This document shows, piece by piece, positions 1-46,897 of a stretch of DNA of 64,000 bases. The notes beneath the pieces are model-generated. The model saw nothing but the letters and a program-made list of their open reading frames with translations. It searched no databases and was not told where the DNA came from. Source of the stretch: Rhizaria sp. SCN 62-66 (taxonomy: Eukaryota); assembly GCA_001724265.1 (NCBI GenBank), contig MEDY01000171.1:1-64000 (forward strand). The letters run 5' to 3'. Within the stretch, counting starts at the first letter, position 1, and each line of letters begins with the position of its first letter. Position numbers and translations under genes: made by a program.

Positions 1-1
1 G

Positions 2-4216: not shown

Positions 4217-4426
4217 ATGTATTATTAGTATTTGATTAATGTACAGTGTACGCGAAATTTAGTTGATTTATTGTTTATAATCATGCAGATATATGTGAGT
4301 TAATACATCATGCTGTTTTGAAATACGTAAAGTATGGACTAATGTAAGATACAAAGTGTGGCCCTGAGCGAGTTGTAATCACTGGACCCAAAACTGTCTT
4401 GAGAAAGAAAAGAACACTGCAAAGCA

Positions 4427-7400
4427 TCATGTGCGCTTGAGCATCTCGTCGCGAATCTTATAGAAAGCCGCAATGTCCGCGTCGGCCTGCTTATTCCCCG
4501 TGGAGACAAACTGAGCGACACCCGCCGCCGGGGCCGGCGCCGCCGCAGGCACAGGGCTGGGCGCTGCGCCATACGCGCCCGCCGAGACCGTCGGCGTGGG
4601 CGGCTTGTACACCGGCGCTGACACCGGCACGGGCGAGGGCGCCGTGTTCTGGCCGTAGCCGTACGCGCCGTTGCCGTAGGCGTGCGCGGCGGGAACCTGG
4701 GTCTGCGCAGGCGCGGGCGCGGGCGCTGGCGCAGCGGGCATGGGCGTGGGCGCTGCGGAGGCGCGGCCGGGCACGGACTTGACCTTCGCCTGCTCTGTCG
4801 CAAACCAGTTGTCGAAGTCGCTCTGCATCTTGCGGCGCTGCTTCTCCATCATATGCTGCAGCGACTCGATCTGTGTGCGCAGGTCTTTGAGGCGCAGGAA
4901 GCCGTCGCGGTACAAGCGCTTCTCGTGCTCCATACGGTCCAGCAACGCAATCTATAGAAACAATATTAAATAATATGTTAACAGCAAATGTAGACCAAAA
5001 ATGAGGATAAAGACCAAAAGAATAGTGAGGATCATGAAAGTGCACTCGTTTCAAGTGCAAGCATCGTACCTCCTCCTCTGTAGGTGCGCCAGCAGAGGGA
5101 TCCTCTGCGCCATCAGCAGCAGCGCGCACGTCGTTGGTGAGGCGCTCTTGGCGCACGCGCGCAAGCTGCTCTTTAGCCGAGCCGACCGCAGTACGCGCAG
5201 CGTTGACGCTCTCGCCAACAGCCTTGGCCTCCTCGATGCTGGCGCGCAGGGCGCTCTTGTTGCTCTCGATCGCGTCGCGGTCCGGGTACGTGGCCTTGTA
5301 GGCTTCGAAAGCGCTCGCGCGGTCAACCAGCTCCTGCTGCTCGCCGCGCGAGAGCCCGCTGGCCGTGTCGGGGGCCGCGCCGCCGCCAACGCGCGCCTGC
5401 AGCTGCGCGGCGCCGGCCTCGACACGCTGCAACACAGCCGCCGACGGTAGCGGACGGCCCTCAAGCACAGCGCGCAGCTTCGCGTCGTCGGCCAGCGCGG
5501 CCGCGCGACCGGGCGCCGCGCCGTCGCGCTGCTGCAGCATGCCCGCCAGGATTGCGATCTCGTTGTCGCGCGCATGAAGCTGCAGCCGCAGCCGGCGGAC
5601 CTCCTCCTGGTACGCCGCAGCCTCCGCAGCCGCGGCCGCAGACGCGCCCGCGCCGCCGGGCCCGCGCGCAGAGGCCAGCTCACCCAGACCCGCGGCCGCA
5701 TCGCCATCGCCAGCACCCGCGCCAGTGGCCCCTACAGCGCCAGCAGCGCCAGCGCCGCTCGCGCCACCCGGAGAGCGGTTGTACATAGCCTTGAGCTGCT
5801 CGAGGAAGAAGCCGACCTTGGTGGAGTTGACAAAAAGCGGCCGCAGCGAGCCGCCCCACACCAGGTGCTCGTTGCCGGGTGCCGTGGTGATCGCGGCGTT
5901 GCCGCCCGCGGCTGCAGCGGCCGCAGCGGCCGAGGCGGCGGCGGACTCGGCCAGGAACTCGCGCAGCGCGCGGAGACAGCGCTCGCGCTCGTCGGGCGTG
6001 AGCGGGCCGGGCGGCGGCGCCTTGCCCTGCAGCGCAAGCAGCTGCTCGCGCGTCTCGCGCAACTGCGACTTAAGCTTGCCGACTAAGATGCGCGGGTCAA
6101 CCTCTTCGTTGACGTACGTCTCGTTGCGAATCAGTGACACGCGCTGCGCAAAGCGGGCAGTACTGAGAGTGAAAAGCAATGTTCGAGAAATTAAGGAATA
6201 TAGATGAATATGTTAGCAGAGAGACATTAAGATACGACATATAAAAAATAGAGGGCAAAAAAAAGGAAGCGACAAAGCTGGCGTGTGAGCGTACCTGACC
6301 GTCTCGTCGAGGTGGTTCTGCTCCATGGACATTGTCGCAAGCATGGCTGTGCGGCAGTTACCACCAAGCGAGTCCTGGAGAACGAGCGTGAGCAGCGAGT
6401 TGCGGTAGGGCACGTGCGAGCGTTTGCCGCGACCGCGCTCCTGCAGCGCAACAATGACCTGCTCGAGGTAATGCAGCGAGAGGTTAATGTACTTGGCCTC
6501 GGTGAGGTTCTTGCCCTTGATGTCCGTCTTCTTGACGCGCTCTGAACCGGCGAGATCGACCAAGTGCAGCTTCGAGCGGCGCACACGGCCCGAGGCCAGG
6601 TCCTTCATCTCGAGTGCGATGGTGAAGACGCAGTGCGAGCGCGTCGACACGTCGTTGGACGGCGTCTCGCAGATGATGCGGTTCGTGTCACCGACGAAGA
6701 GCAGGTTCAGCGCCTCGTCGACGGTCGAGCACGTGAACTCGCCCAGATTGCGCAGCGACACGTTGCCCTGCTCGTCGTGCACGACGCCAACCTTGGGCAG
6801 GTCCTCCAGCGCCTTGGAGTCGTGCGAAGGGTCGAGCAAGTCGTAACCGTTGAGGTTGTAGATCTCCAGATAGCTCACGCGCACTGTGGCCTGCACGCCC
6901 GTGCGCTTTTCCAGTTCGGCAAAGATGTGCGCCAGCGCGCGCGGGATAATACCGCGCTGCTCGTACTGCGCAGTGCCGCCCGTGATGGAGAAAGTCTTGC
7001 CGGAACCGGTTTGGCCGTACGCGAACACTGTGCCGTTGTAGCCCGCCAGAACGGACTGCACGATCGGCAGCGCCAGCGTCTCAAACACGTGTGCCTGCGT
7101 CGCGTCCGTGTCAAAAATGTGCGCGAACTTAAACGTGTGCTGCTCGCGCGTGTTGTTCACAAACCCGCCTGCTTCTGAAACAGGCACGCGAACGTCAACC
7201 TACAGACATCATAGCGAAACAGTGTGTTCGAGAAGTCAGACCAAGTACATGTGATGAATGATGGTAATGTGAGTCAACACTTCGATATATTTAAACGAAC
7301 CTTTCCTGTAGTCTTGTCAATGTCGCAGAGAGCGCGTGCGGGGTTGCGAGTAGGGCGGAAGCGGCAGTAAATCTCAATCTTGTCCGTTGTTACCACAGGC

Positions 7401-15640: not shown

Positions 15641-16905
15641 TCACAGCAGCTTGTACACGGAGCGGTCCGCCATGAACTTGGCGTCGTCGAGCGCGAAGGA
15701 CCAGAGCAGGTACGTAGACACGGGCGTGGCGGCGTGCCACACGGCGTGCGCATCGAGCAGCCCCCATAGCGGCGGGAAGTCGAACACCTCGAACGCGGCA
15801 AAGACCAGGATAATCAGATTCGCGAGCGCAACCTTCCAGGCGTAGGTGACGCGCCCGCCGCGCTGGCGCAGCGCCCACGCCCACCACAGCGCCACGTAGG
15901 CCAGCCCCAGCGCGACGGACACGGTCATGTTGTACCCGTAGTCGAAGTGCACGAAGTGCAGGTAGCCGCAGTGGTAGCACAGGAACAGCGCACCCGCGGT
16001 GCCCAGCGCGGCCCACGCGCGCCGGTCGCGCAGCTCAAAGACGCGCACGAGCGCGATGAGCAGCATGACGCAGATGGAGATCGTGGCGCAAAAGTAGTCG
16101 AGCCGCTCCGTCAGCACCGTGTCACGCGCGTGGAACGCCGTGGACCACACCCACGTGTTCATCGCGCTCACTGCGTAGCCCACCCACAGCGGCTTCATGA
16201 AGTACGAGTCGGGCGCCTGCGCGCGCCACGTCAGCAATGCCTGTGCGAACGGCACAGCGTTGGCCACGGAGAAGAGCGTTGAGAAGAGCTCCTGCATGCC
16301 GAGCACGCGCGTAAACGGCCACTTGCCGTAGTACTTGACGGTCGGCAAGCCGCGTGACGCGCGCGCGAGCACGTCCGCGTGCATCGTCGTGTATTGACCT
16401 GCGTCAGAACGTATCCAACAAATCGGGAAGAGATGCGATGAGAGACAATAAGAGCCACATTACATACAGCACAGGCACGAGACAAGAAAGCGTAAGGATG
16501 CAAAGAGAAGAGCAAAAGCGGCGGTGAACACATATGACGAGATATGGAGCTGATAACATGGAGAGTATGAGTGTAGCGCGCATGGTGATCAACGAGGAGC
16601 AACGTACAGTTTTCCTCGCAGGTCCAGCGGAAGAAGGCAAGATCCCACGTGCGCCAGGCCTGAAGCCCCGCAAGCTGCTCCTTGAGTTCGACAAGCGTTA
16701 GTCCCGCCGCAGGAGTCTCGCTCCCGTTCTCGACGGCGGCGATGTGACTCTCGAGCCGCGTCGCGCGCGTGCAACTCTGGCGGCATGACATGAGCGCGCT
16801 ATAGTACGCCATGCTCTGGTCACCCTCAGAAGCGCTGACTGGCAATAAAAGCAGCGACAACGCAAACAAAATCGCAACAGTGACAATTCTGATGACGCCG
16901 CGCAT
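15641..16905 (-). CDS. PGAP3: Post-GPI attachment to proteins factor 3 (Per1 family), 2 exons: 16905-16608, 16398-15641 (351 aa)
   Basis: Signal peptide followed by ASEGD; WTCEENC|QY across intron 16607-16399; YYGKWPFTRVLGMQE, WSTAFHARD, TERLDYF, FDFPP, LDAHAVWH. Ends in TGA. Confidence 0.95.
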
Positions 16906-17371: not shown

Positions 17372-20300
17372 TCAGGACTGACTGGTTCGGTTCTCGAATA
17401 ACGCGGGAACGCGCATGAAGGAGTCCATCGCCCTCGCAAATACAATAGGAACGGACTCGTCGACGTTCTCGCCCAGCTGGTCGTTAAGACAGACGTACGT
17501 ATGCCGGTCCGCGCCGAGGAAGTACTCGCGCACCTGCGTCAGCGTCGACCGCCAGCCCTGCGGCCCGCGGTAGTTGAGCCCGGTGAAGAGGACGTCGTTC
17601 TCGCCCTGCCGCGTTCGGTACAGCGGGCGCGTCTCCAGGTGCGTTTGCTCCAGCAGCGCCATCGCTACCGGCCACGCTGTGAACTCATCCAGCGTCATCC
17701 GTACATCAGCAGTGCTCTTACCAGAGTCAGTGGGCTCGGCGTCAGTGTTGGCGCCAGTGTCGGCGCCGGTGTCGGTGCGGGCGTCGGTGTTGAGGCGCCA
17801 GGGCTGAGCGCGCAGCAGCGCAGCGCAGTCGTCTGCGCACAGCACGGCCACTGCGGCGCCGTCGGGCAGCACCGCGGTCGCCGCCGCGCGCAGAGTGCGC
17901 ACGCGCAGCGGGTCCCCGGCCAGTGCGGCCGCCGCGGCGGCGTCAGCGAGCAGCGCACCCGTGCGTGGCGGGACCGAGAACGCGGGCGAAGTGATCTGGC
18001 GCACTGCGGCCGCCGCGGTAGCGTTCACGTTCACGGGGTCTAGTTCGCCGTCGTCATCCTCGTGCAACGCTGTCGTCGTCATGGTCGTGGTCGTCGCCTT
18101 CCTCGCCGCCGCAGTGCGGGCGGCCGCCAGACGCTGCTTCGGGGAGCTCGCTGTCGCTGTCGCCGTCGCTGTCGCCGTCGCGGTCGCCGACTCAGCACCA
18201 GCAGATGAGGTCGCAGCCGTCGTTGTTGTCGCTGTTGCTGCAGTTTTGAGCGGCTGCGTGCGGGCAACGCGGTCCACGGTCAGCGGGACTGCGAAAGGGT
18301 GGCGCACAGTGCCGCGTAGACGGTGCGTTTCACGCGGCGGCGGCGGCGCGGGCGCGGCGACGAGCGCGGCCAGCAGCACCCGCACCTCGAGCTCCGAGTC
18401 TAGCGTTCCACTGCAGTCCAGGTCCGCGTCCGAGAAAAAGGCCTCAGCGAGCGTGACCGTGCTTGCGTGGCGAGCGAGCGCCTGGAACGACTGCAGCAGC
18501 GTCGTGTGCTGGATGTCGACGGACCGGCGGAACGGCGTCGCCTCGACGGTCGCATACTCCTCGGGCAGCAGCGCGTGCGCGTGCGCGATGACGTGGCGGC
18601 TCGACAGCACCTGCGCGTGCGCCGGGTCCAGCTCCAGCGCGCTGCCCGTCGCCTTAACCGCCAGCGCGTGCGCGCGCATCTTGTACTCCGGGTACGGCGC
18701 GCGGTTCGGGTCCTTAGGCTGCAGCGGAAACTTGAAGTCGCCGCGCACGCGCCGCGCCCACGCCTGCCGCAGCACGGGCGCCTGCGCGCGCGCCGCGAAC
18801 GCCTCGGCCCCGCTCGCCGCGGCCCAGCGTTCGAACTGCAGCGGCTCCACCTCGTGTGCGCGGCCCGCCAAGTCGTCCGGCGCGCGCGCGTAGCCGTGGT
18901 CGAAGTCGTGCCGGAAGCCCACGGGCCGCTGCCAGAAGGACTCGGCGAAGAAGCTCCGCAGCGCGCCCGCTAAGTGCTTGCGGAACGCCGCGCCGGGTAC
19001 CGCCGCCGCACGGGAGAGTGACGGAAGCGCGGCAAGCGGCGCATAGGAGAGTGAGAGCGCGAGCGCCGTGCACGCGCGCGCTGCGACGCATGCGCTGGGC
19101 GCGGCCACGGCGGCGGGCACGAACGCGATGCGGTCGCGCTGCGCGCTAGCGATGTCGTCGGCCGCGGCGTCCAGCTCGCCCGCTGACACCGCTAGCGCTT
19201 CGGGCGGCGCGGCGAGACGGCGCAGCGCGGCGTGCGCGGCGCGGGCGAGGAGCGACTCCGCCAGCGCCTGCTTTGCCTGCAGCCGCGCATGGCGCGAGAC
19301 TTGCTCCTCGGCGGGGAGCTGCGAGAGGCGCAGCGCACAGTCGCCGCCGTCGAAGGCGCAGGCGGGCACGTCGCACGCGTGGTCGCACACGCCGTCGCCG
19401 CGCCAGACAGTGAAGCACCCGGGCGCGCATGATAGCGCGGCTTCGGCGCCCCGGGGCGCGGGCTCCTCCGCAGGCGTGGAATCCTCCGCAGAGTTCGCGG
19501 CGGCGTTATTTGCGGCTGTGTTGTTTGCGGCTGCAGGCGGGTGCTGCCAGTCGGGCGCGGCGACAAGGACGCGCGCAAGGACGACGAGCGGTGCGGACGC
19601 CGCGGGGGAAACGGCAGCTGGCGAGTCAACCGCTGCGGCCGCAGCGAGATAGTCCTCCGTGGACAGAAAGGGCGCAAAAACGCCCGGAAGCGTCCTGTCC
19701 GCGTCAAACGCGGCGTACGAAAGCTGGGCAACGTGCGCGGCGTTGGTGGCGAAGGTACCCAGGAACGAGAAGAGCGCGGCGTAGGCCGTGGCTTCGGTGG
19801 GCGCGGCGACATAGTTGCGCTCGCAGTCGCCCAAGTCGAAGTCGCACATCTCGTTCATACAGCGCTGGTCGCACACGCCGTCGCCGAGCATGGTGAAGAG
19901 ACAGCCCGGCGAGCAGGGGTGCGGCGGCAGCGGAACGTACATCTGCGTCACGCCCAACGCGTGCTCCACCAGCGCCCGCTGCGGCAACATCTTGGCCATG
20001 AACAGGTCGTCGTTGGAGTAAAACAGGTAGTCGGCGAGCCCCGGCACGCGCTGCAGCGTCGTCTCAATCGCGTTGGAAGAGAACGTCGGCAGACTGCTGT
20101 TGCGCACGAACACCGTCGCGTGGGGCGCCACAGTCACCTTGGCGGGCGCGGCGTCCCAGTTCGCCACTGCGGCAAGGGCCGTGGCGGGCGAGGGCGCGGC
20201 CGAGGCGGGCAGCCACGCGGGGACTTGATCGAAAGTGAGCAGAAACGCGTGGCGCACCCACGGGTTGTACTGGTACGCGGACCGCAGCGCGTATTTGATC

Positions 20301-21400
20301 TCGTTCATCGACCGGAACCGGTCCTTTTTCACACCCGCGCGGCTCAGCGGCGCGGACGGTTTGCTCGGCGGCGGCGGAACATACTCGCCACTGTCATCAT
20401 TGCCGTCATCTGCCTCGCTGTCACCCTTGCTGCTGCTGTCGATGTTAGAGTTAGAGACAGAAGTGTCCGCAAGTGGGCCGTCACTCCTGTCCACACCGAG
20501 CACCGCTGCTAGCGCCTCGTCAGCGTCAGCCACCGCTAACACAGCAGCCTGTGCCGTAAAGCTGCCCGTGGCATTCGCAGAGGCAGCAGCAGCAGCAGCA
20601 GCGGCGGCATCGTCGATGAGCTGTTTCTTGCGCTGAGCCATGGCAGCCAGCAGCACGGGGTCGGAACCGTTGACCCACGTGTACACCATGTCCACGCGTT
20701 CCACGCACTCATGCAGCGGGTAGCGCGCGCCGCGCCAGCTCTCCCACGCCGTCTCGTCCGACACGCCCGCGCCGTCGGCAGCGACGCGCGCGGTGGCGCA
20801 GAACTTGCACACGGGCTGCTGCAGCTACTGGCCGAGAGTGTGCAGGTACGGCGTGCGGCGGTTGCGCGCGTCAAAAAAGCGCCCTGCTGGGAAGGCAGAG
20901 TGCGTGTCGTAGGCGTGCTCGCGCTGCAGCGGCGGGTGCGCGGCCATGAAGGCCGGCGGCGCGCGGTAGAGACCGGGGGTGTTCTCGAGCAGCGAGCCCT
21001 CGGACGCGAGGCCGGTCCAGAAGCCCGCCGCGCGCGCGAGCGCCGAGGACAAGGCGTACGACAACACCGCGGCAGACTCCGATGCAAGCCACTCCGCGGG
21101 CGTGGTGCGCGGTGCTGCGACGAAAGGGGTGTGCGACAAGCGGAATGACATCGATTTGACAGGCTCGACGGATGGTTGGGCTCTGGGGTCGCCGCCTGTG
21201 AGGTTGAGCCACGTGGCGTACGCAAGCAGAGAAAGGCTAAGAATGGCGAGAGTGAAGACCGTTCGGCGGGTGACGCGGTTGCGGTCTCTGCTCGACACAT
21301 AGGCGACAGGGTCTGGGTCGGTGAGCGGGGAGCGGGGCGAGGACGGAGCAGTCGGCACGGCGATGGGCTAGTACTGCGACCTTCCTCGGAAGCTCCTCAT
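17372..21400 (-). CDS. GNPTAB: Stealth-family GlcNAc-1-phosphotransferase alpha/beta-like protein with 2 LNR repeats; 1342 aa if the in-frame TAGs at 21368-21370 and 20825-20827 are sense
   Basis: ATG at 21400, N-terminal TM 'VFTLAILSLSLLAYATWL', CR1 VDMVYTWVNGSDP, CR2 EIKYALRS...PTFSSNAIE...YSNDDLF, two LNR repeats (CSPGC..LGDGVCD..C..CDFDLGDC), EF-hand-like DADLDCSGTLD, CR4 YVCLND. One continuous frame apart from the two TAGs. Ends in TGA. Confidence 0.85.
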
Positions 21401-22281
21401 GTCGTTCTGAGAGGATCAAACCAATATTGGTCCAATAAAAAGTTCACTACTCCAAGTGGTTGTCGGACTAACAAATATGGATCGCACAGTAATCGGAAAA
21501 ATGGTGTAATGAGCAATGTGAAACGCAACGCCATCGACTGTCCAAGCAGGCATCCTTCAAATGAAGCTAATAAGACTTATCAAACGAATCGAACAGTAAA
21601 TTTTCAAAAGCACTTTTAAAACAAGTAGCTTCACCCCATTGTCCTTTAATATATCACGTTGACGATCCGTCTGGTTCAGAATCGGCTCAGTTTAAATGTG
21701 AGCTCGGAACAGAGCGACGCCCCTGCGAGACAGTTAGGAGACAGTGATGACGACCGGAGCTTAAGTCTTTTCAAGATAGATTCACGTATATCCCACACAG
21801 TGGCGCAACAATTCGCAGATATCGTTGATAAAATAAACACCTGTGTATATGCTTTGTGTTCTACTCAGTGGGGCACATTTAGTAAGAGATAATGCGGCGT
21901 GGAGTACGAACAGTGACGATGCGTTTGTGTGTCACTCAAACGCAAGTTAAGTTTGATGTCGGTGCATGACGCAGATTAAAGAAAAAGTAAACAGAGGTTC
22001 ATTAATAAAAGAGAGAGAGATATATATATACGATATTTTTTTGATAAGACTAGTTCAAATCCATCACGAACAAATCGCGACAGACGGTTTTTGAGTTATA
22101 CACATGAGAGTTACACACCGATCCTTGAAACAAACAGAAAAGAACAGGTGCGTGCGTCCACCACCACTTTCACATTGTACGGCCGCATCACGCCAAAGCA
22201 CAGTACTACACACATACAGTCGTGCTACACCAATCACAGAGCCCCCCACAGAACAATGGCAGTCAAAGCAGACCGGCCCGT

Positions 22282-25200
22282 TTACTGGTTGAGACCCTGG
22301 AAGATGCCGCCATTCTTCTGGTGCTTCTTGGCCTTCTTGATCGCGTCCGCGAGCGGCTTGTTGCCCACGCTGAGCGCGACGTCGTACGCCTTGCGCCCCA
22401 CACCGTTCTTGACGGAGAACGACCCGCCTGCGAAGATGAGCGCGTCGAGGATCTCCCACCGGCCCGCCGCGGCGGCGATGTGCACGGCGTTCTGCTGCCC
22501 CGCCGCCAGCGCGTTCGGGTCCGCCTTGGCCTTGAGCAGGCTCTCCACCGTCACCAGCGCAGGATCGCGCGCCGCCTCGGCCGCGGCGGACGCGGCGGCC
22601 GCGGCCACGGTGCGCGTCGCTGCCGTGACACTGCCGCGGGGGCCGGATTCCTCCGCGCCCGCGCCAGCGGCGATAGCGGCGCCGGCGGCCGACGGCATAG
22701 GGGCCGAGATGTTTGTCGCCGCAGCGCCCGCCGCAGTGGCAGCGGCCGCGGTGGCAGCGGCAGCGCCCGAGGGCTGGACGGAAGCCGCAGGCGCGGCGGG
22801 CACGGCCGAGTGCGTCATACTGGCCGCCGCGAGAGAGAGCGCCGTGTTTCCGATCGCATCGGCGAGCCCCACGGCGGCGTTGGCCTCGAGCAGCGTCTTG
22901 GTCGTGTCGGCGTTGCCCTCGGCCGCGGCCAGCATCAGCGCCGTGGACCGCCGCGCCGCGCTCCGCAGGTCCACCGTGGCTTTTGACGCGAGCAGAAAGC
23001 TCACGATGTCGGTCCGCCCGCGGCGCGCCGCCCAGTGCAGCGGCGCCAAGTCACCGGAGGGCCCCGTGGCGTCGACGTCGGCCTTGGCGGCAATAAGCGC
23101 GCGCGCCACGGAGAGATGCCCGCGCTGCACGGCGTACAGCAGCGGGGTCGCACCGCTGCGGCCCGGCGCGTTGACGTCGGCCTTGAGCCGCAACAGCGCC
23201 GTCGCCACGGCCGTGTGGCCCGCGTACGCGGCGAGGATCAGCGGCGTCTCGCGAGTGTCACTGGCCGCGTTGGGGTCCATGTGCGCGTCGGCGACGAGGA
23301 TCTGCACCAAGTCGCTCAACCCCTTTTGCGCCGCGTCGTGGAGCGCGGTGAAGCCATTGCGGTATGATAAATGCAATGGGGCGCGCGCGGAGACGAGCGC
23401 GCGCACGATCACGTCGCTCTCAGTCGCCACGGACCGCGCATTCGCGGTGGCCAGCGCTGACGCTGCAGCGGCGGACATGCGCGCGCCGTCGGAGCCCGCG
23501 GCCGGAGCAGCAGCAGCGCCGCTGGCACCAGCCGAGCCGGCGGCAGGCGCGGCGGCGGCAGCAGCAGACGCGCCTGCTCCGGCCCCTGGCGCAGATGCAG
23601 ACGCGGACGCGCCACCGCCGCCGCTGACTGCAGCGACAGCAGAGCCCGGCACCGCAGCGGGGCCGGCGGGGGCGCGGAGGGCGCGCGCGGTGGCGCCCGG
23701 CGTGGGCAGTACGCTGGGTCCTTCACTGCCATCGCTCGGAGCCACAGCGGCCGCAGCAGCAGCAGCAGCAGCAGCAGAAGCGAACGCGCCCTTTTCCTTC
23801 TCAGCGGCCGCCGTCGCGGCCGGAGGAGCGTTAGCGGCGGCGGCCTTGCGCTCTTGCTCGACCTGCTTCTGGTGCTCCTGGAGCATCTTTTGCACGTCGT
23901 CCTTGCGGAACGTGGCCGTGGCGATCTGCACGCGCGCCTTCATGATTGCGTGCGCGATCGCCGTGTGGCCGCGCGCGCGCGCCAGCTGCAGCGGCGTCCG
24001 GTCGTGGTCGTTGGCAATGCGCACCGTGGCTTTGGCCTCGAGTAACGCGATGACCGACGGCATCTGCCCGGCGTCGGCCGCCACGTGCAGCGGAGTGTTG
24101 CCGTTGTCGTCCTTGGCGTTGACGTCGGCGCGCGCGGCCAGCAGGTGGTGAATCACGGCTTCGCGCCCGCCGTGCGCGGCCAGGTGCAGCGGCGACATGT
24201 CGTACACTGGTGTCCGCTGCGAGGGGCCCGCGCCGTATTGCAGCAGCAGCGCCGCGATGTCGCCGTGGCCCAGCGCCGCCGCGCGCTGCAGCGGCGTGAT
24301 AACCACGTCCTCCATCCCGCTCGCGCCGCCGCCGCAGTCGGCACCGCCAGCGCTGGCCACGGCGGCGGCGGTGGCGGCAGCGGAGGAAGCAGACGCGTCC
24401 GCCGCGGCGGCCTGGAGGAATCTCAGGTCGTCGCCCTCGTCCAGCCCGTCTGCAGCAGCGGTGGCAGCGGCGGCGTCCGAAGCGGCCTCGCGCGCGCCCG
24501 CGGTGATGGCGGTGACGCCCGGACGGCCCTCAGGGTCTGCGCCGAGCTCGAGCAGCGCGCGCACAGTCGCGAGCATGCCCGCCTCGGAGGCCTGCACGAG
24601 CGCAGGCTGCCCCGTCTCGTCTGACACGGCCGAGGGGTCCGCGCGGCGCCGGATCAGCGCCGCCGCGGCGTCGTCGTCGCCCGAGTCGAGCGCCGCGAAG
24701 AGCTCCGCGGTGGTCACCGTCACGGGAGTCGCCAGCGCTGCCGCGGCCGAGGGCGCGGTCAGCACGCGCTTCGGCCGCGCCGCGCTAGGAGTCGGCGGCG
24801 CTGAGCTTGAGGCTGACGCAGAGGACGCAGAGGCCGTGAGCACGGGCGCAGTGATGACGGCGCGCGAGGTCGGAGCGAGCGAGGGCGTCACGGCGGGGCT
24901 CGGGTAGGGCTCGCCCAGCTTGCGCGGCCCCGCGCTGGGCGTGGCCGCCGCGCTGCCCGGCGCGCTCGACGCCGCAGACCCCGACCCCGGCTGCGGCTGC
25001 ATGAGCGGCACGGGCACTGGTGTGGGGCCGCCGGGCGGGGTGGGCGTGGGCGACCCTTGCCCGCCACCGCCGACCTGGTCGTGGAAGGACCGGAGTGAGA
25101 CGCCGTCGACGGCCAAGGCCAGTCCGCCGAGGGCGGCGCCAGAGTCGCCGAAGCTCACGTGGCTCTGCTGGCCGTGGCCGTGACCGAGGCCGATGGCATG

Positions 25201-27540
25201 CAGCGGCAGCGGGGCGAGCACGTCGCCCTCGCCCTCGGGGTCCGCCCCGCCGCGGCGCTGGTCATCAAGTCTGGAACCAGAGGCGCCGGCTCCAGCGCCA
25301 GAGGCTGCGCCGGAGACTGAGTTGCGCCCGAAGCCGGAGCCGGCTCCCGAGGCAGCGGTAGGGCTGTCCGCGACGATGACGCCGACAACGCGCATGGAGC
25401 GCTCGGCGCCGTCCTCGCCGCGCACAAGCACGCGCTGCGGGCCCGACGGTGTCTGCTGCGGCGGCACTGTGCGCAGCGGCGAAACGCCACGCTGCGGCGA
25501 CGCCCTGCGCTGCGGCGACGCACTGCGCAGCGGCGATGCGCCACGGAGCGGCGACGCGCCGCGCGAGCCCGCAGCGGAGGCTGCGGCGGACGCGGCGCCA
25601 GAGGCCGCGGCGGAAGCAGGGCCGGAGACAGCGCCGTAGACGGGAGCGCAGAAGGGGTTCGCGCCGCGCGGGGTCTCGCAAGGACTGCCCTGCGTGGGCG
25701 CACGCACGACGCTCGCGCGAGACTGCGGCTGCGACGAGTCCGCGTAGGGCCCCGTCACCAGCGGCGCCGGACTGCGCCCGCGGCCCGCGCCCGCTCCCAC
25801 GCCCGCGGCGGCCGAGACGGAGAGCCTGCCGCGGCCGCGGCCGGGCGACGGCGAGCGCGACTGCGCATAGCCGCCACTAGTCGACGGGCGAGGCAAGTCG
25901 CGCGACGGACTCGCGTTGGGCAGCGGCGTCGCGCGGCCGGGCCCCGCGCTGGGCGAGCGGGACCGCGCGCGCGCGGCGTCGTAGTCGCCACTGGGCTTGC
26001 GCGAGTGTTGGCCGAACGAAGCGCCGGGGCTGGCGTTGGCGAAGGACGCCGCGGCAGAGTTGGTGGCAGCGACGCGTGGCGCGGGGCCCGGCGCGGGGTG
26101 CAGCACCGAGTTGATCAGCGGGTTCATGATGCGCGGCGACAGCGTGGCGGCGTGGTACGCTGGGTCCTGCGCGATCGCCTGCCGCAGGTAGCCCGTGATC
26201 GCGGTCGCACCGCCCTCGAGCGAGGCCTCGTAGGCGGAGCGGCCATGGAAGGCGGGCACGGGGAACAGCCGCTCAGGGCGCGCCGTCACGCGCCGGCTCT
26301 GCTCGAACACGGGCGCGATAGTCTTGCGAAAGCGCTCCTCGTACATCGGCCCGCGCTCGAGCGGGCGCGCGCCGTGCTGCAGCAGCAGGTGGACCATGCC
26401 CGCGTTCTGCCGCCGCACAGCCTCGACTAGCGGCAACGACGCGAAGGCCGTGGCCGAGCCCTCGGGCAGCTGCAGCAGCCGGTGCTGCACGCCGCCGTCG
26501 AACGCCGACACGGGCCGGTTGGGGTCGGCTTTGGCGGCGAGCAGCAGGCGCGCGCAGGGGATGTTGCCGCGCTGCACGGCGGCCAGCAGCGGCCACTGCA
26601 CGCCGCGCATCACGGCGCCGTCCTGCGCCGCGGGCGACGTGGCGTTGACGTCACAGCCGCCGCGCACGAGCGCCGCCACGCCCGGGGCGTCGCCCGACGC
26701 CACGGCGGCGCAGAGCAGCTCGACTTCTTCCTCGATCTGCGCGAGACAGACGGGCCGCAGCGCCTCAACGGCAAGCGCGAACTCGAGCCGGCGCGCGAGG
26801 TCAATCGGCGCCTCGCCCAGCGAGTTGACAGGGAACAGGAACGCGCGGCGCTGGACGAGCAAGTCGACGCGGTGCTGCGCTTTGCCACCCGCGCCGCCGC
26901 CCGCGGCCCACGCGCGCGCGGGGCCCGACGCCGCGACGCCAGGCTCCGAGAGCAGGAGCTGGATCATCGGCTTCGAGCCCACGCGCGCGGCCGTGTGCAG
27001 CGGCGTCTCGTGCTTGCCGCCCGCCGCGATGTCCGAGTACGCGCCCTTGTCCAGCAGCGCCTCGACAGCGTTGAAGCGGGCCGCGCGGATGGCAGAGTGC
27101 AGCGGCGTGTCTTGGTAGCGGCCCAACGCGCGGTGGATCTCCAGCGCGGGGTCGCTGTGCGTGAGCAGCGCGACCACGACCTCGGCGTTGCCGCGCTCGG
27201 CCGCCCAGTGCAGCGCGGTGTTGCCCGTGGTGTCCAGGATGAGCGGGTCTGCGCCGAAGCGCAGCAGGTGGTCCACGCAGATGTTCGCGTTCTTGATGCT
27301 CGAAAGGATGAGCGGGGTGTAGCCGTACTGGCCCTGCGCGTCTGGGTCCGCACGGTGCTGAAGCAGGGCCAGGGCGAGGTCGGCCGCATGTCGCGCGCAA
27401 ACGAGGTGAAGCAGCGTATTGTTCTGCGGGTCTCGCGTGTCGACGGGAGCGCCGTTCTTCAGCAGGCGCTCAACCGTCGACAGCTTGCCTTCGTAGCATG
27501 CATCCAGGAGAGCACCCTCTTTAGACACTGTCCCTCCCAT
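22282..27540 (-). CDS. Multi-ankyrin-repeat protein (1752 aa) with predicted N-myristoylation
   Basis: Single-exon ORF starting MGGTVS. Many ankyrin motifs (GNTALHWAAERG, TPLHSA, GNTPLHVAADAG, GFTALHDAAQKG, ETPLILAAYAGH) in three clusters separated by low-complexity linkers. Ends in TAA. Confidence 0.9.
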   Translation of the reverse strand: MGGTVSKEGALLDACYEGKLSTVERLLKNGAPVDTRDPQNNTLLHLVCARHAADLALALLQHRADPDAQGQYGYTPLILSSIKNANICVDHLLRFGADPLILDTTGNTALHWAAERGNAEVVVALLTHSDPALEIHRALGRYQDTPLHSAIRAARFNAVEALLDKGAYSDIAAGGKHETPLHTAARVGSKPMIQLLLSEPGVAASGPARAWAAGGGAGGKAQHRVDLLVQRRAFLFPVNSLGEAPIDLARRLEFALAVEALRPVCLAQIEEEVELLCAAVASGDAPGVAALVRGGCDVNATSPAAQDGAVMRGVQWPLLAAVQRGNIPCARLLLAAKADPNRPVSAFDGGVQHRLLQLPEGSATAFASLPLVEAVRRQNAGMVHLLLQHGARPLERGPMYEERFRKTIAPVFEQSRRVTARPERLFPVPAFHGRSAYEASLEGGATAITGYLRQAIAQDPAYHAATLSPRIMNPLINSVLHPAPGPAPRVAATNSAAASFANASPGASFGQHSRKPSGDYDAARARSRSPSAGPGRATPLPNASPSRDLPRPSTSGGYAQSRSPSPGRGRGRLSVSAAAGVGAGAGRGRSPAPLVTGPYADSSQPQSRASVVRAPTQGSPCETPRGANPFCAPVYGAVSGPASAAASGAASAAASAAGSRGASPLRGASPLRSASPQRRASPQRGVSPLRTVPPQQTPSGPQRVLVRGEDGAERSMRVVGVIVADSPTAASGAGSGFGRNSVSGAASGAGAGASGSRLDDQRRGGADPEGEGDVLAPLPLHAIGLGHGHGQQSHVSFGDSGAALGGLALAVDGVSLRSFHDQVGGGGQGSPTPTPPGGPTPVPVPLMQPQPGSGSAASSAPGSAAATPSAGPRKLGEPYPSPAVTPSLAPTSRAVITAPVLTASASSASASSSAPPTPSAARPKRVLTAPSAAAALATPVTVTTAELFAALDSGDDDAAAALIRRRADPSAVSDETGQPALVQASEAGMLATVRALLELGADPEGRPGVTAITAGAREAASDAAAATAAADGLDEGDDLRFLQAAAADASASSAAATAAAVASAGGADCGGGASGMEDVVITPLQRAAALGHGDIAALLLQYGAGPSQRTPVYDMSPLHLAAHGGREAVIHHLLAARADVNAKDDNGNTPLHVAADAGQMPSVIALLEAKATVRIANDHDRTPLQLARARGHTAIAHAIMKARVQIATATFRKDDVQKMLQEHQKQVEQERKAAAANAPPAATAAAEKEKGAFASAAAAAAAAAAVAPSDGSEGPSVLPTPGATARALRAPAGPAAVPGSAVAAVSGGGGASASASAPGAGAGASAAAAAAPAAGSAGASGAAAAPAAGSDGARMSAAAASALATANARSVATESDVIVRALVSARAPLHLSYRNGFTALHDAAQKGLSDLVQILVADAHMDPNAASDTRETPLILAAYAGHTAVATALLRLKADVNAPGRSGATPLLYAVQRGHLSVARALIAAKADVDATGPSGDLAPLHWAARRGRTDIVSFLLASKATVDLRSAARRSTALMLAAAEGNADTTKTLLEANAAVGLADAIGNTALSLAAASMTHSAVPAAPAASVQPSGAAAATAAAATAAGAAATNISAPMPSAAGAAIAAGAGAEESGPRGSVTAATRTVAAAAASAAAEAARDPALVTVESLLKAKADPNALAAGQQNAVHIAAAAGRWEILDALIFAGGSFSVKNGVGRKAYDVALSVGNKPLADAIKKAKKHQKNGGIFQGLNQ

Positions 27541-28199
27541 GGTGAGTTAAACGCAGGTTAGGCCACGAAATGCCGTGAATCTAACGAGTGAGATGATGGG
27601 AGGTTGCCAATGAATAGAAGCGGACAAAAGAAGGTATTCATGGCGAGTAAGAGAAACCAAAATAAAATATAATACATTTTACCAAGTATACTTACACGTT
27701 CAAACTAGTTTGTGGCTATTTATGATAGATGAGACGCATATGAGCAGTTCTGGCTACCTGCTGAGCGCTCGGTAATACAGTTTGCCTTCTTTGCAGTGAG
27801 GGCTCATTTCGCATCTAAAAATACGGTGATATGATCATAGGCCACGAAAATAGATGGAACAATGCCACAGTTCTACACATAATAACACTTTATCTTTATT
27901 AGCACTCCGTGCTGGCGCAGGTTTGGAGTTGTCTGCACAGTTTGATGTGTTGCTGCCTGACTTCATGTTCGACCTGACCTCGTGCGCTAGAAACTGCTGC
28001 TGATAAGATGCCACACACGATATTTAGGTTTAATAACACGACGAATGGGCATCTTCATAATCAACAATGCTAATTCCATGACCACACACTCAAACATTTG
28101 ATTTTGCATGCGCACACGCGAAGACAGGCAACCTTCCACAACTGCCAATTCAAATCTCTTTTCATCTTCTGGCCGCTCCAGGTCACTCAACCGTGTTCA

Positions 28200-30281: not shown

Positions 30282-33200
30282 TCACTTATGCATGCTCGAC
30301 TGTTGCACCTGGGCACGCGTCTGCTCTTGCTGCACCCGCGCGCGTTCACGTTCGCGCGCCATCTCCTGTCGCCACGCACGCAGCCCCCTAGAGTCAATAA
30401 CTTCGGCCGCGTAGCCGTCAGCGGGCGCACGAACAAGCTCATACACGCGCCACAGCAGCAGCCCTTCATCGAGCGCGCGCGCGCCGCGCACCGGGTCAGC
30501 GCCTAGCGCCCACGCGCACTCACTCGCGCCCCGGGGCTCACGCGCCGCATCGCCTGCATGCGTCACATCGGCCGCGTCCACCACATCGGCAGCATCGCAA
30601 GCCTCGCGCCGCCGGCGTGGCCCTGAGCCGAGCGCGACCGGGCCGATTGCGTGGAGCACCGACAGCAGCCCCACGCCCAGCGCCGCGGGCGCAGTTGGCG
30701 GGCGCGCAGCGACGCGGTGCGCACGGAGCGCGTCGGCGCCGAGCGTGTGCACCGGAACCTTATTGGTGAGCCCCGAGCGGTAGCGCCACAGCGCGTTCTT
30801 GACGAGCCCTTCGGCGTCGGTGCCCGCGGCCGCCGCAGCTGCGGCCGCCGCGACGACGGCCGGTGCGGCGCCGCGCTCGCACAGCCACTGCGCATGACCC
30901 TTGGCGACAGCATCCACGGCAGTGCGCAGCGCGGGCGTAAGGATTGTCGGCAGCATGTTGCTGCAGTGGTAGTCGATGCCACTCAGCGCGAGGTCTTCCG
31001 GCTCGACAGCGTCGAGCCCGCCCGCGCCCAGCGCGCCCAGCAGCGCGCCCGGCAGCGCCGCCGCGGGCGGAGGTCGGTGCGCCGCCGCTGCGGCCGCGGG
31101 GTCTTTGGCGGCCGCGATCGCGGTGAGGCCGGCCATAGGAAGTGGAGAGACCGAGAAGAGCGGCACCCACCGCGGCGCGGCAGTTAGCGCCAGCGCAGGG
31201 GCGACGATCGCCAAGAGCGAGCCCGCGGCGGCCTGGTCGCGCAGGAATGCGCCCGCCGTCGCCGCGCGCCCGCGGCCTGCTGCGGCGGCGGCCGCGGTCG
31301 CTGCCACGGACGCAGCGGACGCAGGCGCGGGCGCAGCCCCTAAGCCGGGGGGCAACTCGATCGTAGCAACAGCAAGGCGCGGCAGCTTGAGCTCTGCCTT
31401 AAGCTCGGGACCCGTGTTGAAGAGCAGCGTCTGCGTCTCTCGCGCCGCGGCGCTGGCGCTCAGAACGGTCACTGGGCGCAGGCCGGAGCACGGCGCGGTC
31501 ACTGCAAGCACCGGCGCTGTGGTCTCGCCGTCGGCGGAGACGGGCACAGTAACGGTGACGCCCTCGCGAGGTGGCACGGGGGTGATGCCGCCAGTACAGC
31601 AGGCGCACTGAGCCTCGGCGGAGGCAACGCGTCCGACAGGTCGCGCAACAGTAGCGCCGTAAGGCATCGCGGCGTATGCCCAGTCGACGAACGCGAGCCA
31701 GCCGCGACACGCGCAGTCACTTCCAAACGGACACGTGCTACCGCAAGAGCAGTTGCATTCACCTTCAGCGTCACTGGTAACTGCTGCAAGCGTGGGCGGC
31801 GAATCCGGAAGTGCAGCGTGGCGCCACTTTGCAGCTACAGCCTCCGTCCATTCCTCAGTGACATCGGCCTCGGCAAACGCAAGAGCTGCGACGGATGCGG
31901 TCCGCACTTGCAATGCGCGTGCAGCTGGGCTCGAGTTGGGTGACGTCGTGTGCGCAGCCGCTACACCAGCGCGCGCAAGGACGTGGAACCTCGGGGCACA
32001 GACAGCAAAGTTAATGCGGCCCTGGGCGGCCGAGAGACGCAACTTGGCAAGGACAAGCGGTGCGGCAGCAAGGGGCAAAAGAGAGGCACGAGCGATCGCG
32101 TCTACAGCACGCTTGTTGCTCAAACCTTCAGCAGCTGCAAGGGCCGCTGCGCGGGCACAAAGAGCGCCACGCCACGCGCGGTCGAGAGCATCAGCAGCAA
32201 AGCGAAGTAACCACATGTGCGCACTGCGCCGCAGCATGTACACATCTCCAGCCATGCCTCCAAGCGCACCACGGAGTAGCAGACTGCGCACGAGCGCGGC
32301 CTCATGGGGAGTCAAGTGAAACACGCCTTCAAGATCCGTCTGTAACGACAGCGATGCAAATGTGTCGTTATTTTGGCGTCGACGCTCACCGAAGCCGCGG
32401 GCGGTGGTCCCACCTGTAGGAGCATTCATAGATGCGGCACCAGTCGAGGTTGGCGAAGAAGGTGAAACAGATGTGGCGTCAGATTGGGTACGAGCAAGAG
32501 CCGCCGACGCTGACGCCGCACGCTGTGGAGTCGTGTTAGCTGCCTGCGTGAGCAACGCCGCTGCAGCCGTGGCAGACAACGATAGAGCGGGGCGCAATGT
32601 CTGGGACAACCGCTGCTAGCTTCCAGGCGTCAACGACACGTGGGCATCACCGCTAGTGCCGGAATTGTGCCGCCGACTGGAGGATGAGCCGCGTGCGCTT
32701 GCAAGTGTCGCAGCAGCGTCCTCTGTGATGGTCGTGGTATCGGCAAGTGCGTGTGCGATGTCCGCCAACAACGCAAACACCATAGCATAGCCTTGGTTGC
32801 CTGGAGTGGGAAATGCGGTGCTGTTCGTTGTCGACGCCTTGCGGGGAGGTCGCCGACCGCCACCATCACTGTCATCACCGTTGCAGCGCTGAGAACCGCT
32901 AGACATGTCATCATCACTGCCATCCATCCGCCGTTGAGCTCCACGAGCGTTTGAGGTGTGCGCAGAACGTTGGCCTCGACGTAATGACTTGCGCACCATC
33001 GGCCGCGCGTCGACCACATCGCTGTCCGCAGCGAGCCCCCAGTCGCAAAGGCTTGAATCGTTGAAGCCCGCGTCCTCGCAACCCGCGCCGTTTGCGATGG
33101 CTAACTCACCGCACGAAGCCGCATCCTGCAAAATGAGCCGCGCTGCAAAGCGCGCAGCTTTAAGCGAGAGTCGAGCGCGAACGGAACCTGCGGGAGGTAA

Positions 33201-36200
33201 ACCGGTGTTCGTAGATTCATCTGTGTGTGAACTTTCGGTGTTAATGGCCAGGTATTCGTCAAGAAAAGCATCGTACTCATCTGGCTTCAGGGCACGCTCG
33301 GCCCAGGTCAGGACGCTCTGGTTAAGCGCATCAAGCGGGCTCGTGTACACACGCCCATCACGTGCTACAACGCCGTCTACGTCGTCATCATCGTCATTTA
33401 AGATATCTGCAGCTACAGTGGCGCCGCCGCCAGCAGCAGCGTCAGCAGCTTCTCCGCCGTGCACAGCTTCCGTAGCGGCCGCCAGTGCGGTGGCGGGGTC
33501 AGCCAGCGGAAGCGGCCCCGACTCGAGGCAGTCGCGCACGGGACACATCGCGAGCTGGTACAGCACGGTCAACGCGAGCGACACCATCCAGGCCGCTGGT
33601 TCCGTCTTGGTGACCGCGACAGGTTTCGCCACGCCGGTGGCGCCCCCGGCCGGCCCGGCGCTGGCGCGCAGGACCTCGTCGCGGATGGCCGTATAGCCGC
33701 CGTCGGGCCGGATGAAGCTCGGCTTCGCGGCGCGCGCGGCGGCGTCCCACGTGCGCGTGCCGACGGTGGCGCCCGCGGACGCCGCGCCCTGGCCGAACGA
33801 GTCGCCGGGCCCGCCCACGACGCCCGCGGCGGCCCCGGCTAGCGCAGGCGGCGGCCAGTGCGTGGACGCGGCGGCGTGCACAAGCCACGGCAGCGCGGGA
33901 TGCAGCAGCGCGTCTTCGACCGCAATAATGGGCACGCGCCGCAGCAGCTCCAGCGGGCCCGCCGCAAGGCACAGCTGCCAGCCCGCGCGCACGGCCCCCA
34001 GCGGGCGCGAGAGACGGACGTTCTTTTGCAGGATCGACTTCCATTGTGACGGGGACAGCGACAACCGCAGCGGCGGCGCAGGCGCGGGCAGCGTTGCAGG
34101 CGCAGTTGTGGAGAATGCAGCCGCGATCGCGGCAGCAACTCCTGGCGCCCAGCCGCTCCAGTGACGGGCGCGCCATTCACGCAGACACAGCGAGAGCGGC
34201 GCAACGACGGACCACGGCAGCACCAGCGTGTGCATCAACTGCTGACTGAGCAGCGCCGCGAGTGTGATTGGGCCCTGCGCGTGCGCGCCCGACACGGCCT
34301 TAATCGCAAGCGACGAGACTGCGCCGCGGGCGAGCGCGAGTGGCCCCCCAATTAGGCCGACGGGCGCGGGGCTGGGCGCCGCACCTTGAGCAGCAGGTGA
34401 AGATGCAGGCAGTGGGACGAGACAGCGTTGCCACGACATGCCGCACAGCGCAGCCGAAAGTGCGGCGCGCATCGAGGCTGAGATGTGATGGGCAGCGAGC
34501 GCCATCGGCATGCGTACTGATGCAAGGCTGGTGCTGCTGCGAGCCAATCCCGAAAACGTGGCCAACACAATGGCGCCAGACTTTAGTTGTTGTGGTCCTC
34601 CGCGTGAGCTTTCTCCTGCTGGTGCGCTGGCAACGAGTGCAGCCATTTGGGCTCGAATTAAAAGCGTGGGAGCCACAACACAGGCCAAAGCTGCAAGCTT
34701 GCTGGGACTCATTGGCTCCGAAACAGGCGGGGGTTGCTGCTGGCGCTGCTGCCCCTGCGACGCAATCTCCACACGCGTGCGAGCTGCGATGGGTGCAAGC
34801 GCAGCGTCAGCCTCTTCCATCGTGACAGTGAGCGCGAGCGGAGCGCGCACCGTGGTGATGAGCGCCGTGGGCGTCACAGACGGGCCGCTCGCGGCGTTCA
34901 CAGGCGCCGTAAGCGCCATGGTCTCGCGCACCTTCATGATGCTCGCGGTGGACGCAGTCGCCGACAGACACGTCGCTGGGCTACTGTCAGCTAGAGCGAA
35001 TAAAGGCGTGCCAGGCGCTGAGAGTAAAGCGAAAATCGCTGAGTTCGCAGGATCGGGAGTTGCGGCGAACGCCTTTGAAGCTGCAGAGACTGCAGCCGGT
35101 GACGCACGCAGACTGGAATCGCCCGTGTAGACAACACGGTCTAACCGGAGCGCAACAGCAGCACCGGGCGCGGCAAACGCAAGTGCGACGGCGGGGGCCA
35201 CAGCGGGCATCACTGATGGCATATTCTCAAGCAGCGGCAACGCACACATGAAAAAGAAAAGTGGTGCTGGCAGCTGGCAAAAAGGCTTCACCCGACGCAG
35301 CGCGTGCCAAGCAAAGTTTAGCCGCTGCCAGGCGGCGCAGTCGCTGCGGAACACTTCTGCCGTCGGCGCCACTGTGAGCTCGGCTGCGTGCAGGCGCATC
35401 AGTGACGGCGCTGCAGCCTCGCGCCAGGGACCTTGGTACGCGCCACCGATGGCGACAGGGGAGCTGTTGCTTACAGCCGCAGCAGGCGCGACCGCAAGCG
35501 GGGGCAGCGCGTACAGCGAAAGCGGGTCGAAGGGGGGCCCTGCCGGCGCAGAAGATATGACTGATGTGGCCGTGCCAGCCACGCTGATAACCGGAGCGTC
35601 GTCGCGGACAGCCTTGCGCGGCGAGCGGTCTCGCGCGCCCAGCGGCAGCGCGCGCAGAGGCGACGCCACACGGCCCCCTGCAGCGTGAGCTGCAGCGCCC
35701 ACAGTGACCGCGCCGAGCGTAACCGCGGTGAGCGGCGAGGCGGGCTGTTTGGACCGCGTGCTAGGAGGCCTGCCCTTGAGCAGCGACATCACAGGCACCA
35801 CCGGGGAGTCGCTGTCGCTGAGCGCGCCGGCCCCCGCAGAAGCGCTGTCGTCGTCCGAGAGCGCGACAGTGTCGGAGTCATCGCCACCGCCGCGCGCCGC
35901 GCTGGCTTGAGCACGCGCACGCTGCGACTGGCCAAAGGGCGCCCCGCCGACAGTCATCGGCGCCAGTGGCGCAGGGGCGGGCGCGGTCTTCGTGGCTGCA
36001 CCACTGGCTGCAGCAGCGGCGGCAGCAGCGCGCTTAAGGCTAAGTGCATGCCACCCATCAGCACTCACCGTGTCAGCCGCGGCGCCCACAGTAACCTGAG
36101 CCTGCATGTCATGACGCGTCGCGGCATTGACACATTGCGCCGCACTGGTTGTGCGCGGCCGGCCAAGCGCTGAGAGAGGCAGCAGCTGCGCGTTCGCCGC

Positions 36201-38508: not shown

Positions 38509-38560
<52 letters not shown>

Positions 38561-46864: not shown

Positions 46865-46897
<33 letters not shown>

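Follow-up and report, generated by a model that had tools for sequence, protein, structure and literature searches.

The present analysis concerns a 64,000-nucleotide stretch of DNA from Rhizaria sp. SCN 62-66 (contig MEDY01000171.1, positions 1 to 64,000; hereafter the window) and, within it, a minus-strand gene for a GNPTAB-like Stealth phosphotransferase whose reading frame contains two in-frame TAG triplets. We conclude with reasonable confidence that this organism uses a nuclear code where UAG serves as a rare glutamate (Glu) codon while UAA and UGA are the stops. That TAG is read as sense is very likely, and its identification as a Glu codon is made with good confidence. A preliminary description of this DNA had claimed that both TAGs of the Stealth gene are translated. 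This claim is well supported, mainly by genome-wide evidence: a tRNA with a CUA anticodon, an altered release factor eRF1 whose own gene bears a TAG, the absence of convincing gene ends at TAG and the presence of TAGs in conserved domains. The same description regarded the need of the enzyme for its membrane anchor as the strongest functional argument for recoding; this argument is reasonable, but better evidence is found elsewhere in the genome. It gave no amino acid, and the present evidence favours Glu over the glutamine (Gln) of table 15.

TAG as a sense codon across the genome

The assembly holding the window (34.9 Mb, 714 contigs) is eukaryotic and has spliceosomal introns; about 1 Mb of it was sampled, in partly overlapping pieces and with a bias towards kinases and dyneins. 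In 918 kb, coding-like runs were ended 61 times by TAA, 31 times by TGA and 19 times by TAG, and an open coding-like frame resumed past the stop in 12 cases for TAG compared to none for TAA and one for TGA. Mid-exon sites with coding sequence on both sides showed the same TAG-specific excess (17 TAG compared to three TAA and two TGA). Among the coding runs that end before AT-rich DNA in the sample of about 1 Mb, 98 stop at TAA (n = 61) or TGA (n = 37) and five at TAG. None of these five TAG ends is convincing, as two are introns, one is a probable shadow frame and two are sense sites. In locus L005, a TAG lies 11 codons ahead of the TGA and the sequence after it is still coding-like. Examination of TAG as a gene end near the 3′ terminus, as expected from a context-dependent code, gave no convincing case in this small sample.

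The 316 sampled segments (170,039 codons) contain 53 TAGs, of which 37 are internal and 35 were retained, compared to 8,373 GAG and GAA codons, so that TAG would represent about 0.4% of Glu codons. TAG sites are carried by the single eRF1 gene and by genes encoding a Ubc6-type E2, SUV3, a SNF2 ATPase, five kinases, a Ras-like protein and two deubiquitinases; those of L122 and L176 are probably sense sites too. The AAA, ABC and RRM family searches did not reveal any TAG. The distribution is clumped, since TAGs occur in 26 of the 316 segments and nine of them in one gene. Locus L180 (positions 2430-7073, plus strand, contig C44) is a 1,548-codon segment with a weak Nudix match and nine TAGs in its first 450 codons, which make up one quarter of all sampled sites; no viral relative of this Nudix-like segment was found.

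TAG is also a common intron end, as it terminates 22 of 47 putative acceptors. Therefore, frames that read through TAG often enter introns and naive TAG counts are inflated. The TAGs of L118, L119, L121, L125, L126 (the first one), L149, L150, L177, L178, L179, L208, L211, L213 and L215 correspond to intron ends or intron sequence and not to sense codons, and L120, L209 and L217 did not give a usable frame. Likewise, the in-frame TAGs of dyneins, once aligned to 150 homologs, proved to be intron sequence or to lie in the wrong frame, and the reading of one of them as Glu was rejected; the aligned dynein heavy-chain exons do not contain any sense TAG.

A cognate tRNA and an altered eRF1

An intact tRNA gene with a CUA anticodon, followed by a T-run, is located on contig C84 and scores 58 bits on RF00005. 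It is the only CUA gene among 35 pattern matches, all of which were checked, whereas tRNA-Glu(CUC) occurs at seven distinct places. The 17 pattern matches for UUA or UCA anticodons (one checked within L034 only) include no such tRNA, in a search that misses intron-containing tRNAs. The tRNA(CUA) forms a canonical cloverleaf with canonical D and T loops and a 4-nt variable loop. Of its 73 positions, 47 are identical to the native tRNA-Glu(CUC), among them the acceptor ends and the T stem, and this is its best match among 33 native sequences covering 17 amino acids (Ser, Tyr and Phe being left out); the next sequence reaches 40 positions, the Lys tRNAs 39 and 34 and the Gln tRNAs 33 and 29. Furthermore, a tree built without anticodons pairs it with tRNA-Glu(CUC) with 85% support.

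The assembly has a single true eRF1 match, two further matches being Pelota-like. The TAG of this gene is located in the N domain, at a gap-free place of the alignment to human eRF1. In 116 homologs (four of the 120 matches were excluded by length), the corresponding column holds E in 105 sequences, D in 10, V in one and Q in none. A metagenome contig carries the same TAG over 1,626 identical nucleotides, although its source may be shared with the assembly. From the sampled rate, one TAG would be expected in a gene of this length about 9% of the time. The protein itself departs from its homologs at Thr32 (T32S, GTS to GSS; Thr in 116 of 116) and twice in the TASNIKS loop (G57S, Gly in 116 of 116; T58K, Thr in 115 of 116), and it keeps E55, NIKS, S70 and YxCxxxF. 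The eRF1 of P0004 (84% identical) also has T58K but retains Thr32. Section 9 of PMC5304391 describes a bond between Thr32 and the G of UAG, and a Gly at this position in Iotanema (T32G).

The amino acid encoded by UAG

Besides the tRNA(CUA) and the eRF1 column, several conserved domains point to an acidic residue. The column of the Ubc6 TAG is Asp in yeast Ubc6, that of the SUV3 TAG is Asp in human SUV3, and one kinase paralog also has Asp at a TAG column; at the kinase hinge TAG, Glu is found in 15 of 18 kinases of the organism itself. When per-site Pfam scores were added (with the Pkinase model for kinases, and with L122 and L176 outside this scoring), Glu had the highest total over 11 sites (E 613.4, Q 609.2, K 608.1, D 606.8, S 602.8, A 601.0, Y 593.1 and L 590.1) and over 13 sites (E 649.7, Q 646.3, K 645.8 and D 641.8). 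A profile of 18 kinase sequences did not separate the candidate residues. In the ciliate PL0344, as described in the relevant part of PMC10553269, tRNA-Glu-like CUA tRNAs accompany the use of UAG as Glu.

Several results weigh against Glu. Its advantage over Gln in the Pfam sums is just 3.4 bits at 13 sites, of which 2.4 come from the kinase hinge alone, and site by site Glu wins six times, ties three times and loses four times. At this hinge position, the closest solved kinases (KSR) have Ser and RAF kinases have Gln; a yeast Suv3 has Ser at the SUV3 column, and the residue of P0004 at the eRF1 column is Val. Both TAGs of L139 stand where its own repeat or the native ubiquitin has Gln. Finally, a context test on 35 TAG sites (L069 and L165 having been dropped beforehand) gave an observed value of −2.6 compared to a median of +31 for matched Glu codons, with none of 300 draws as low. 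The neighbours of TAG are closer to those of matched Gln codons (median −12.9), yet they also fail the comparison of Gln with Ser (P 0.01), and the context model does not identify the residue, its top ranks being His and Ser. Such mixed contexts would be expected if TAG arose mostly by mutation of CAG and TCG in disordered regions.

Locus L139 (positions 1-2085, plus strand, contig C681) consists of one long frame that includes an internal duplication and encodes a ubiquitin domain and a C-terminal tail. As Gln is expected at both of its TAGs, this locus may represent a copy that is decaying or mobile.

The explanation that best survives besides Glu is that UAG is indeed sense but encodes Gln or a mixture of Gln and Glu, for example if glutaminyl-tRNA synthetase charges the CUA tRNA through U35, a mischarging known from E. 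coli amber suppressors. The TAG contexts, the two L139 sites and the four Pfam sites where Q exceeds E would fit this possibility, as would the TAGs that lie within Gln runs (L185, window position 53904 and window position 20825, where the second Stealth TAG reads 'GQ#LQQ'); moreover, stop-to-Gln changes are the most common reassignments according to the survey part of PMC11687900. However, the low identity of the tRNA(CUA) to both native Gln tRNAs, the lack of Q among the 116 eRF1 homologs and the acidic columns of Ubc6, SUV3 and the kinase paralog all speak for Glu, and CAG-to-TAG transitions would place TAG in Gln-rich disordered regions even if it encodes Glu. We therefore consider a Gln or mixed codon as unlikely, though it deserves to be kept in mind.

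It is less probable still that the meaning of UAG is contested, a partly active eRF1 competing with one low-copy tRNA so that both full-length and truncated products are made and TAG plays a regulatory role. The rarity of TAG (35 of 170,039 codons, none in the aligned dynein heavy-chain exons), its clumping, the single CUA gene compared to the seven places of tRNA-Glu(CUC), the TAG in the eRF1 N domain and the replacement T32S, milder than T32G, would all suit such a competition. However, no convincing TAG terminator faces the 98 TAA and TGA ends, the TAG of L005 is sense only 11 codons ahead of a stop, no 5′ bias is seen outside one gene, and the chance of about 9% given above for an eRF1-length gene does not make its TAG exceptional.

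The Stealth gene and its two TAGs

Two in-frame TAGs precede the catalytic region and a membrane helix lies between them, as the preliminary description had noted. The frame that runs on the minus strand from the ATG at 21400 to the TGA at 17372-17374 encodes 1,342 residues and contains exactly two TAGs. Its features are as follows:

17372-21400, minus strand: GNPTAB-like Stealth phosphotransferase gene, 1,342 codons in a single uninterrupted frame with a TGA end, if TAG is sense
21407-21409, minus strand: CAG preceded by a T-rich tract, where a 5′-leader intron probably has its 3′ splice site
21398-21400, minus strand: likely start ATG, where GC content and coding score go up
21368-21370, minus strand: TAG 1, in frame, codon 11, in the predicted cytosolic tail
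21206-21262, minus strand: predicted signal-anchor helix, residues 47-65, the sole likely membrane anchor
20825-20827, minus strand: TAG 2, in frame, codon 192, in mid-exon and in the luminal stem
20621-20698, minus strand: Stealth CR1, residues 235-260 (PF17101, E 2.9e-10, above cut-off)
19964-20320, minus strand: Stealth CR2, residues 361-479 (PF11380, E 4.2e-24, above cut-off)
19337-19915, minus strand: two LNR (Notch) repeats, about residues 496-529 and 658-688 (PF00066, two stretches)
18482-18622, minus strand: Stealth CR3-like segment (PF17102, E 0.0042, under the curated cut-off)
17417-17512, minus strand: Stealth CR4-like segment with N1306, near the protein end (PF17103, E 0.065, under the curated cut-off)

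Human GNPTAB (7s05) is the best solved relative of this protein (E 1.9e-33). Using the human residue numbering given in PMC9388126, the catalytic residues whose spacing was checked are intact: S442, E446 and N463-D464-D465 of CR2 are spaced as Ser385, Glu389 and Asn406-Asp408, and H928, R958 and Q964 of the CR3-like segment as His956, Arg986 and Gln992. A PDB search with the C-terminal third of the protein did not return anything significant. Large hydrophobic residues are most frequent in residues 47-65 (11 of 19, with a Kyte-Doolittle mean of 1.78), a segment preceded by a basic stretch; among four homologs, the hydrophobic segment ahead of CR1 is stronger in three (2.29-2.78) and has a mean of 1.61 in the fourth. 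No C-terminal helix was found in the last 120 residues (best mean 1.16), whereas vertebrate GNPTAB has a transmembrane helix at each end according to the structural account of PMC9388126. Therefore, the preliminary wording of a type II protein with an N-terminal anchor is appropriate for the Stealth protein, which lacks the C-terminal helix, but not for the vertebrate enzyme. Judging from its sequence, the product would be a single-pass Golgi enzyme resembling GlcNAc-1-phosphotransferase.

As previously described, the ATG at 21400 lies 6 nt past a CAG (21409-21407). This CAG has 11 T in the preceding 27 nt, within the range of 7-21 seen for the 47 putative acceptors, although these were chosen for their T/C richness, which makes the comparison partly circular. 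The ATGs of the frame are codons 1, 84, 152 and 238, and the first one past TAG 2 (position 20689, codon 238) does fall inside CR1, so that the standard code would give a peptide of 10 residues, pieces of the stem that lack the anchor, and an enzyme whose start lies within CR1. From the ATG to TAG 2 (codons 1-192), the coding score is 0.13 in this frame compared to −0.18 to −0.75 in the other five, with a GC3 of 0.82, and both flanks of TAG 2 are coding-like (0.43 and 0.88). Given the sampled rate of 35 TAGs per 170,039 codons, the post hoc probability that a gene of 1,342 codons carries two of them is about 0.03. TAG is thus slightly but not extraordinarily enriched in this gene, where both TAGs are ordinary rare codons and not a special recoding signal.

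Since ATGs are also present upstream on the minus strand (21640, 21553 and 21534), a short N-terminal extension is possible. A contig from a poly(A) run spans 21506-21736 (window 21500-21740, minus strand), which suggests a 5′ leader of more than 300 nt including these three ATGs. A contig of RNA run X4 covering 20648-20915 carries TAG 2 without any difference, and the X4 pieces among those listed skip 21339-21387, which holds TAG 1. Poly(A) RNA run X1 has exact pieces on the gene body and the 3′ end, with zero depth in the TAG 1 bin; in the TAG 2 bin, the depth of 3.47 comes from pieces matched at 80% likeness only and settles neither way. Overall, the RNA contigs do not decide for either TAG.

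An explanation restricted to the Stealth gene, in which the TAGs are spliced out or translation begins downstream, is very improbable. It would draw on the frequent use of TAG as an acceptor, on the many TAGs from family searches that turned out to be intron ends and on the ATG at 21534, which could in principle be joined to the AG of TAG 1. Two points limit the argument from the membrane anchor: an unusual 3′ splice site might in theory remove TAG 1, and the closest of the four homologs found shows no detectable similarity to the region upstream of TAG 2 (local score 35 compared to a shuffle mean of 39). No close orthologue of the gene was found. Against removal by splicing, both TAGs have only 4 T upstream compared to a minimum of 7 among the putative acceptors (TAG 1, with 4 T and 10 G, is outside their range), the region is GC-rich and coding-like in frame, and splicing here would leave the gap-free sites of eRF1, Ubc6, SUV3 and the kinases unexplained.

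If the standard code applied, the TAGs would have to be errors of the assembly or nonsense mutations of pseudogenes, which can hardly account for these data. L139 does resemble a decaying copy and the genome is apparently an environmental assembly, but the sole eRF1 gene has a TAG, a cognate tRNA exists, the same TAGs occur in other contigs (whose source is perhaps shared with the assembly), the mid-exon excess is specific for TAG and the catalytic residues of the Stealth protein are intact. A residue other than Glu or Gln, namely Ser (as in Scotinosphaera), Leu (as in the rhizarian exLh), Lys or pyrrolysine (the ARAGORN label), can be practically dismissed, since in spite of the His and Ser ranks of the context model and of K scoring within 3.9 bits of E at 13 sites, the 4-nt variable loop is unlike Ser and Leu tRNAs, the canonical D and T loops are unlike tRNA-Pyl, the Lys tRNAs match at only 39 and 34 positions, and S and L lie 10.6 and 23.3 bits under E at 11 Pfam sites.

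Other features of the window

Three other in-frame TAGs and seven recognizable neighbour genes were found in the window:

32616-32618, minus strand: in-frame TAG, codon 2295 of the 3,073-codon frame 30282-39500
53052-53054, plus strand: in-frame TAG in frame 52782-57869
53904-53906, plus strand: in-frame TAG in frame 52782-57869, in a Gln-rich context
4491-7208: KIF9 kinesin
15641-16459: Per1
22282-27546: ankyrin-repeat protein
39844-42195: EF-G, probably mitochondrial
42889-43794: capping protein alpha
51097-52407: Rpn7
58842-60888: CDC20

The TAG at 32616-32618 is less sure because its flanks score only weakly as coding. A further TAG (44454-44456, plus strand) is located six codons past the ATG opening frame 44334-50579; it may be an intron end and not a sense codon, since the DNA upstream is non-coding-like. 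In the ordinary neighbour genes, the frames that reach a gene end stop at TAA or TGA.

The organism and its lineage

The assembly has 18 dynein AAA_6 matches, spread over about a dozen loci, which suggests that the organism is probably a flagellate, and near-identical sequence is present in activated-sludge and wastewater runs. The 18S rRNA gene (L116, positions 1500-5950, plus strand, contig C706) is about 4.4 kb long, very divergent and AT-rich. Inspection by eye shows that it is interrupted at conserved motifs by four insertions, the first of about 1 kb, which are probably group I introns. HSP90 is closest to the environmental proteins P0275 and P0395 (88% identical), as eRF1 is to P0004; these relatives could date the code change. 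The ubiquitin copies of L137, L140 and L141 start with M-S-M-Q-I-F; two of them break at contig ends, and the complete copy, in L137, has three residues past the di-glycine. Such a start is compatible with the single-residue insertion at polyubiquitin junctions reported for Helkesimastix, Chlorarachnea and Retaria in the relevant part of PMC6133090, although no polyubiquitin junction was found in the assembly. Neither the match lists of eRF1 and HSP90 nor the ubiquitin junction place the lineage; a sainouroid rhizarian is a guess with a roughly even chance of being right.

Proposed origin and significance of the code

In the favoured reading of UAG as a rare Glu codon, the tRNA(CUA) would be a descendant of tRNA-Glu(CUC) in which base 36 has changed, and glutamyl-tRNA synthetase would charge it. 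As an anticodon with C34 should be unable to read UAA, UAA would remain a stop, and the altered eRF1 would bind UAG poorly. The Stealth gene would then be translated from the ATG at 21400 through both TAGs, with Glu at residues 11 and 192. A more speculative and rather doubtful extension is that a flagellate, perhaps a sainouroid rhizarian, is at an early stage of the capture of UAG by a single tRNA-Glu derivative, the codon being still rare, clumped in particular genes and partly contested by eRF1, with the TAG in the stop-recognition domain of eRF1 acting as a feedback switch. If this were true, the clade to which exLh (UAG = Leu) belongs would have captured UAG twice, independently and for different amino acids.

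This genome has the tRNA as well as the altered eRF1, the two candidate components of the mechanism, whereas for exLh and Iotanema section 9 of PMC5304391 describes a cognate tRNA that is only predicted. As TAG is rare here, this code offers a case in which codon capture can be tested against an ambiguous intermediate. It further illustrates that screens can overlook such codes, since the standard code calls the eRF1, SUV3 and GNPTAB-like genes broken. Furthermore, the eRF1 changes provide leads on the discrimination of UAG, which bears on the engineering of amber suppression in eukaryotes.

Comparison with known systems

The Stealth protein shares with human GNPTAB (PDB 7s05 and 7s6n; structural account in PMC9388126) CR1, CR2, two LNR repeats and CR3- and CR4-like segments in the same order, equally spaced catalytic residues and an N-terminal membrane helix. 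It differs by the lack of a C-terminal helix, long Ala-rich insertions, an apparent Gln as the counterpart of Asn1153, and CR3 and CR4 scores below the Pfam cut-offs.

A change of meaning nearly always affects UAA and UAG jointly. According to the relevant parts of PMC11687900, the few codes that reassign UAG alone give Leu, Gln or Ser. These UAG-only nuclear codes are those of the rhizarian exLh (Leu) and Iotanema spirale (Gln), described in PMC5304391, and of phyllopharyngean ciliates (Leu, Gln), Protocruzia (Gln) and Scotinosphaera (Ser), listed in PMC11687900; the corresponding passages of PMC5304391, PMC10553269 and PMC9161772 agree with PMC11687900 on these codes. The present code resembles them in having UAG as sense, UAA and UGA as stops and a tRNA with a CUA anticodon, and it shares with Iotanema an alteration of eRF1 Thr32. 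However, the residue is here probably Glu, which none of them uses, the eRF1 changes are T32S, G57S and T58K and not T32G or L69A, and UAG represents about 0.4% of Glu codons compared to about 8% of Gln codons in Iotanema.

Glu at UAG is known from codes in which UAA is sense too. In Oligohymenophorea sp. PL0344 (UAA = Lys, UAG = Glu; relevant parts of PMC10553269 and PMC11687900), a tRNA-Glu-like CUA tRNA also reads UAG as Glu, but UGA is the sole stop, ten CUA tRNA genes are present and UAG is abundant, whereas the present genome has TAA as its most frequent stop and a single CUA gene was found in it. Glu at UAG is likewise seen in peritrich ciliates and in Blastocrithidia (UAR = Glu; relevant parts of PMC11687900, PMC5304391 and PMC12153298), but both UAA and UAG are recoded, with context-dependent stops in Blastocrithidia, whereas here no tRNA with a UUA anticodon was found and TAA is unused in mid-exon. 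A code with UAG as Glu and with UAA and UGA as stops is unreported in the literature searched, as judged from titles and abstract openings and with most subscription journals outside. It would therefore be a further variant of the genetic code, apparently outside ciliates.

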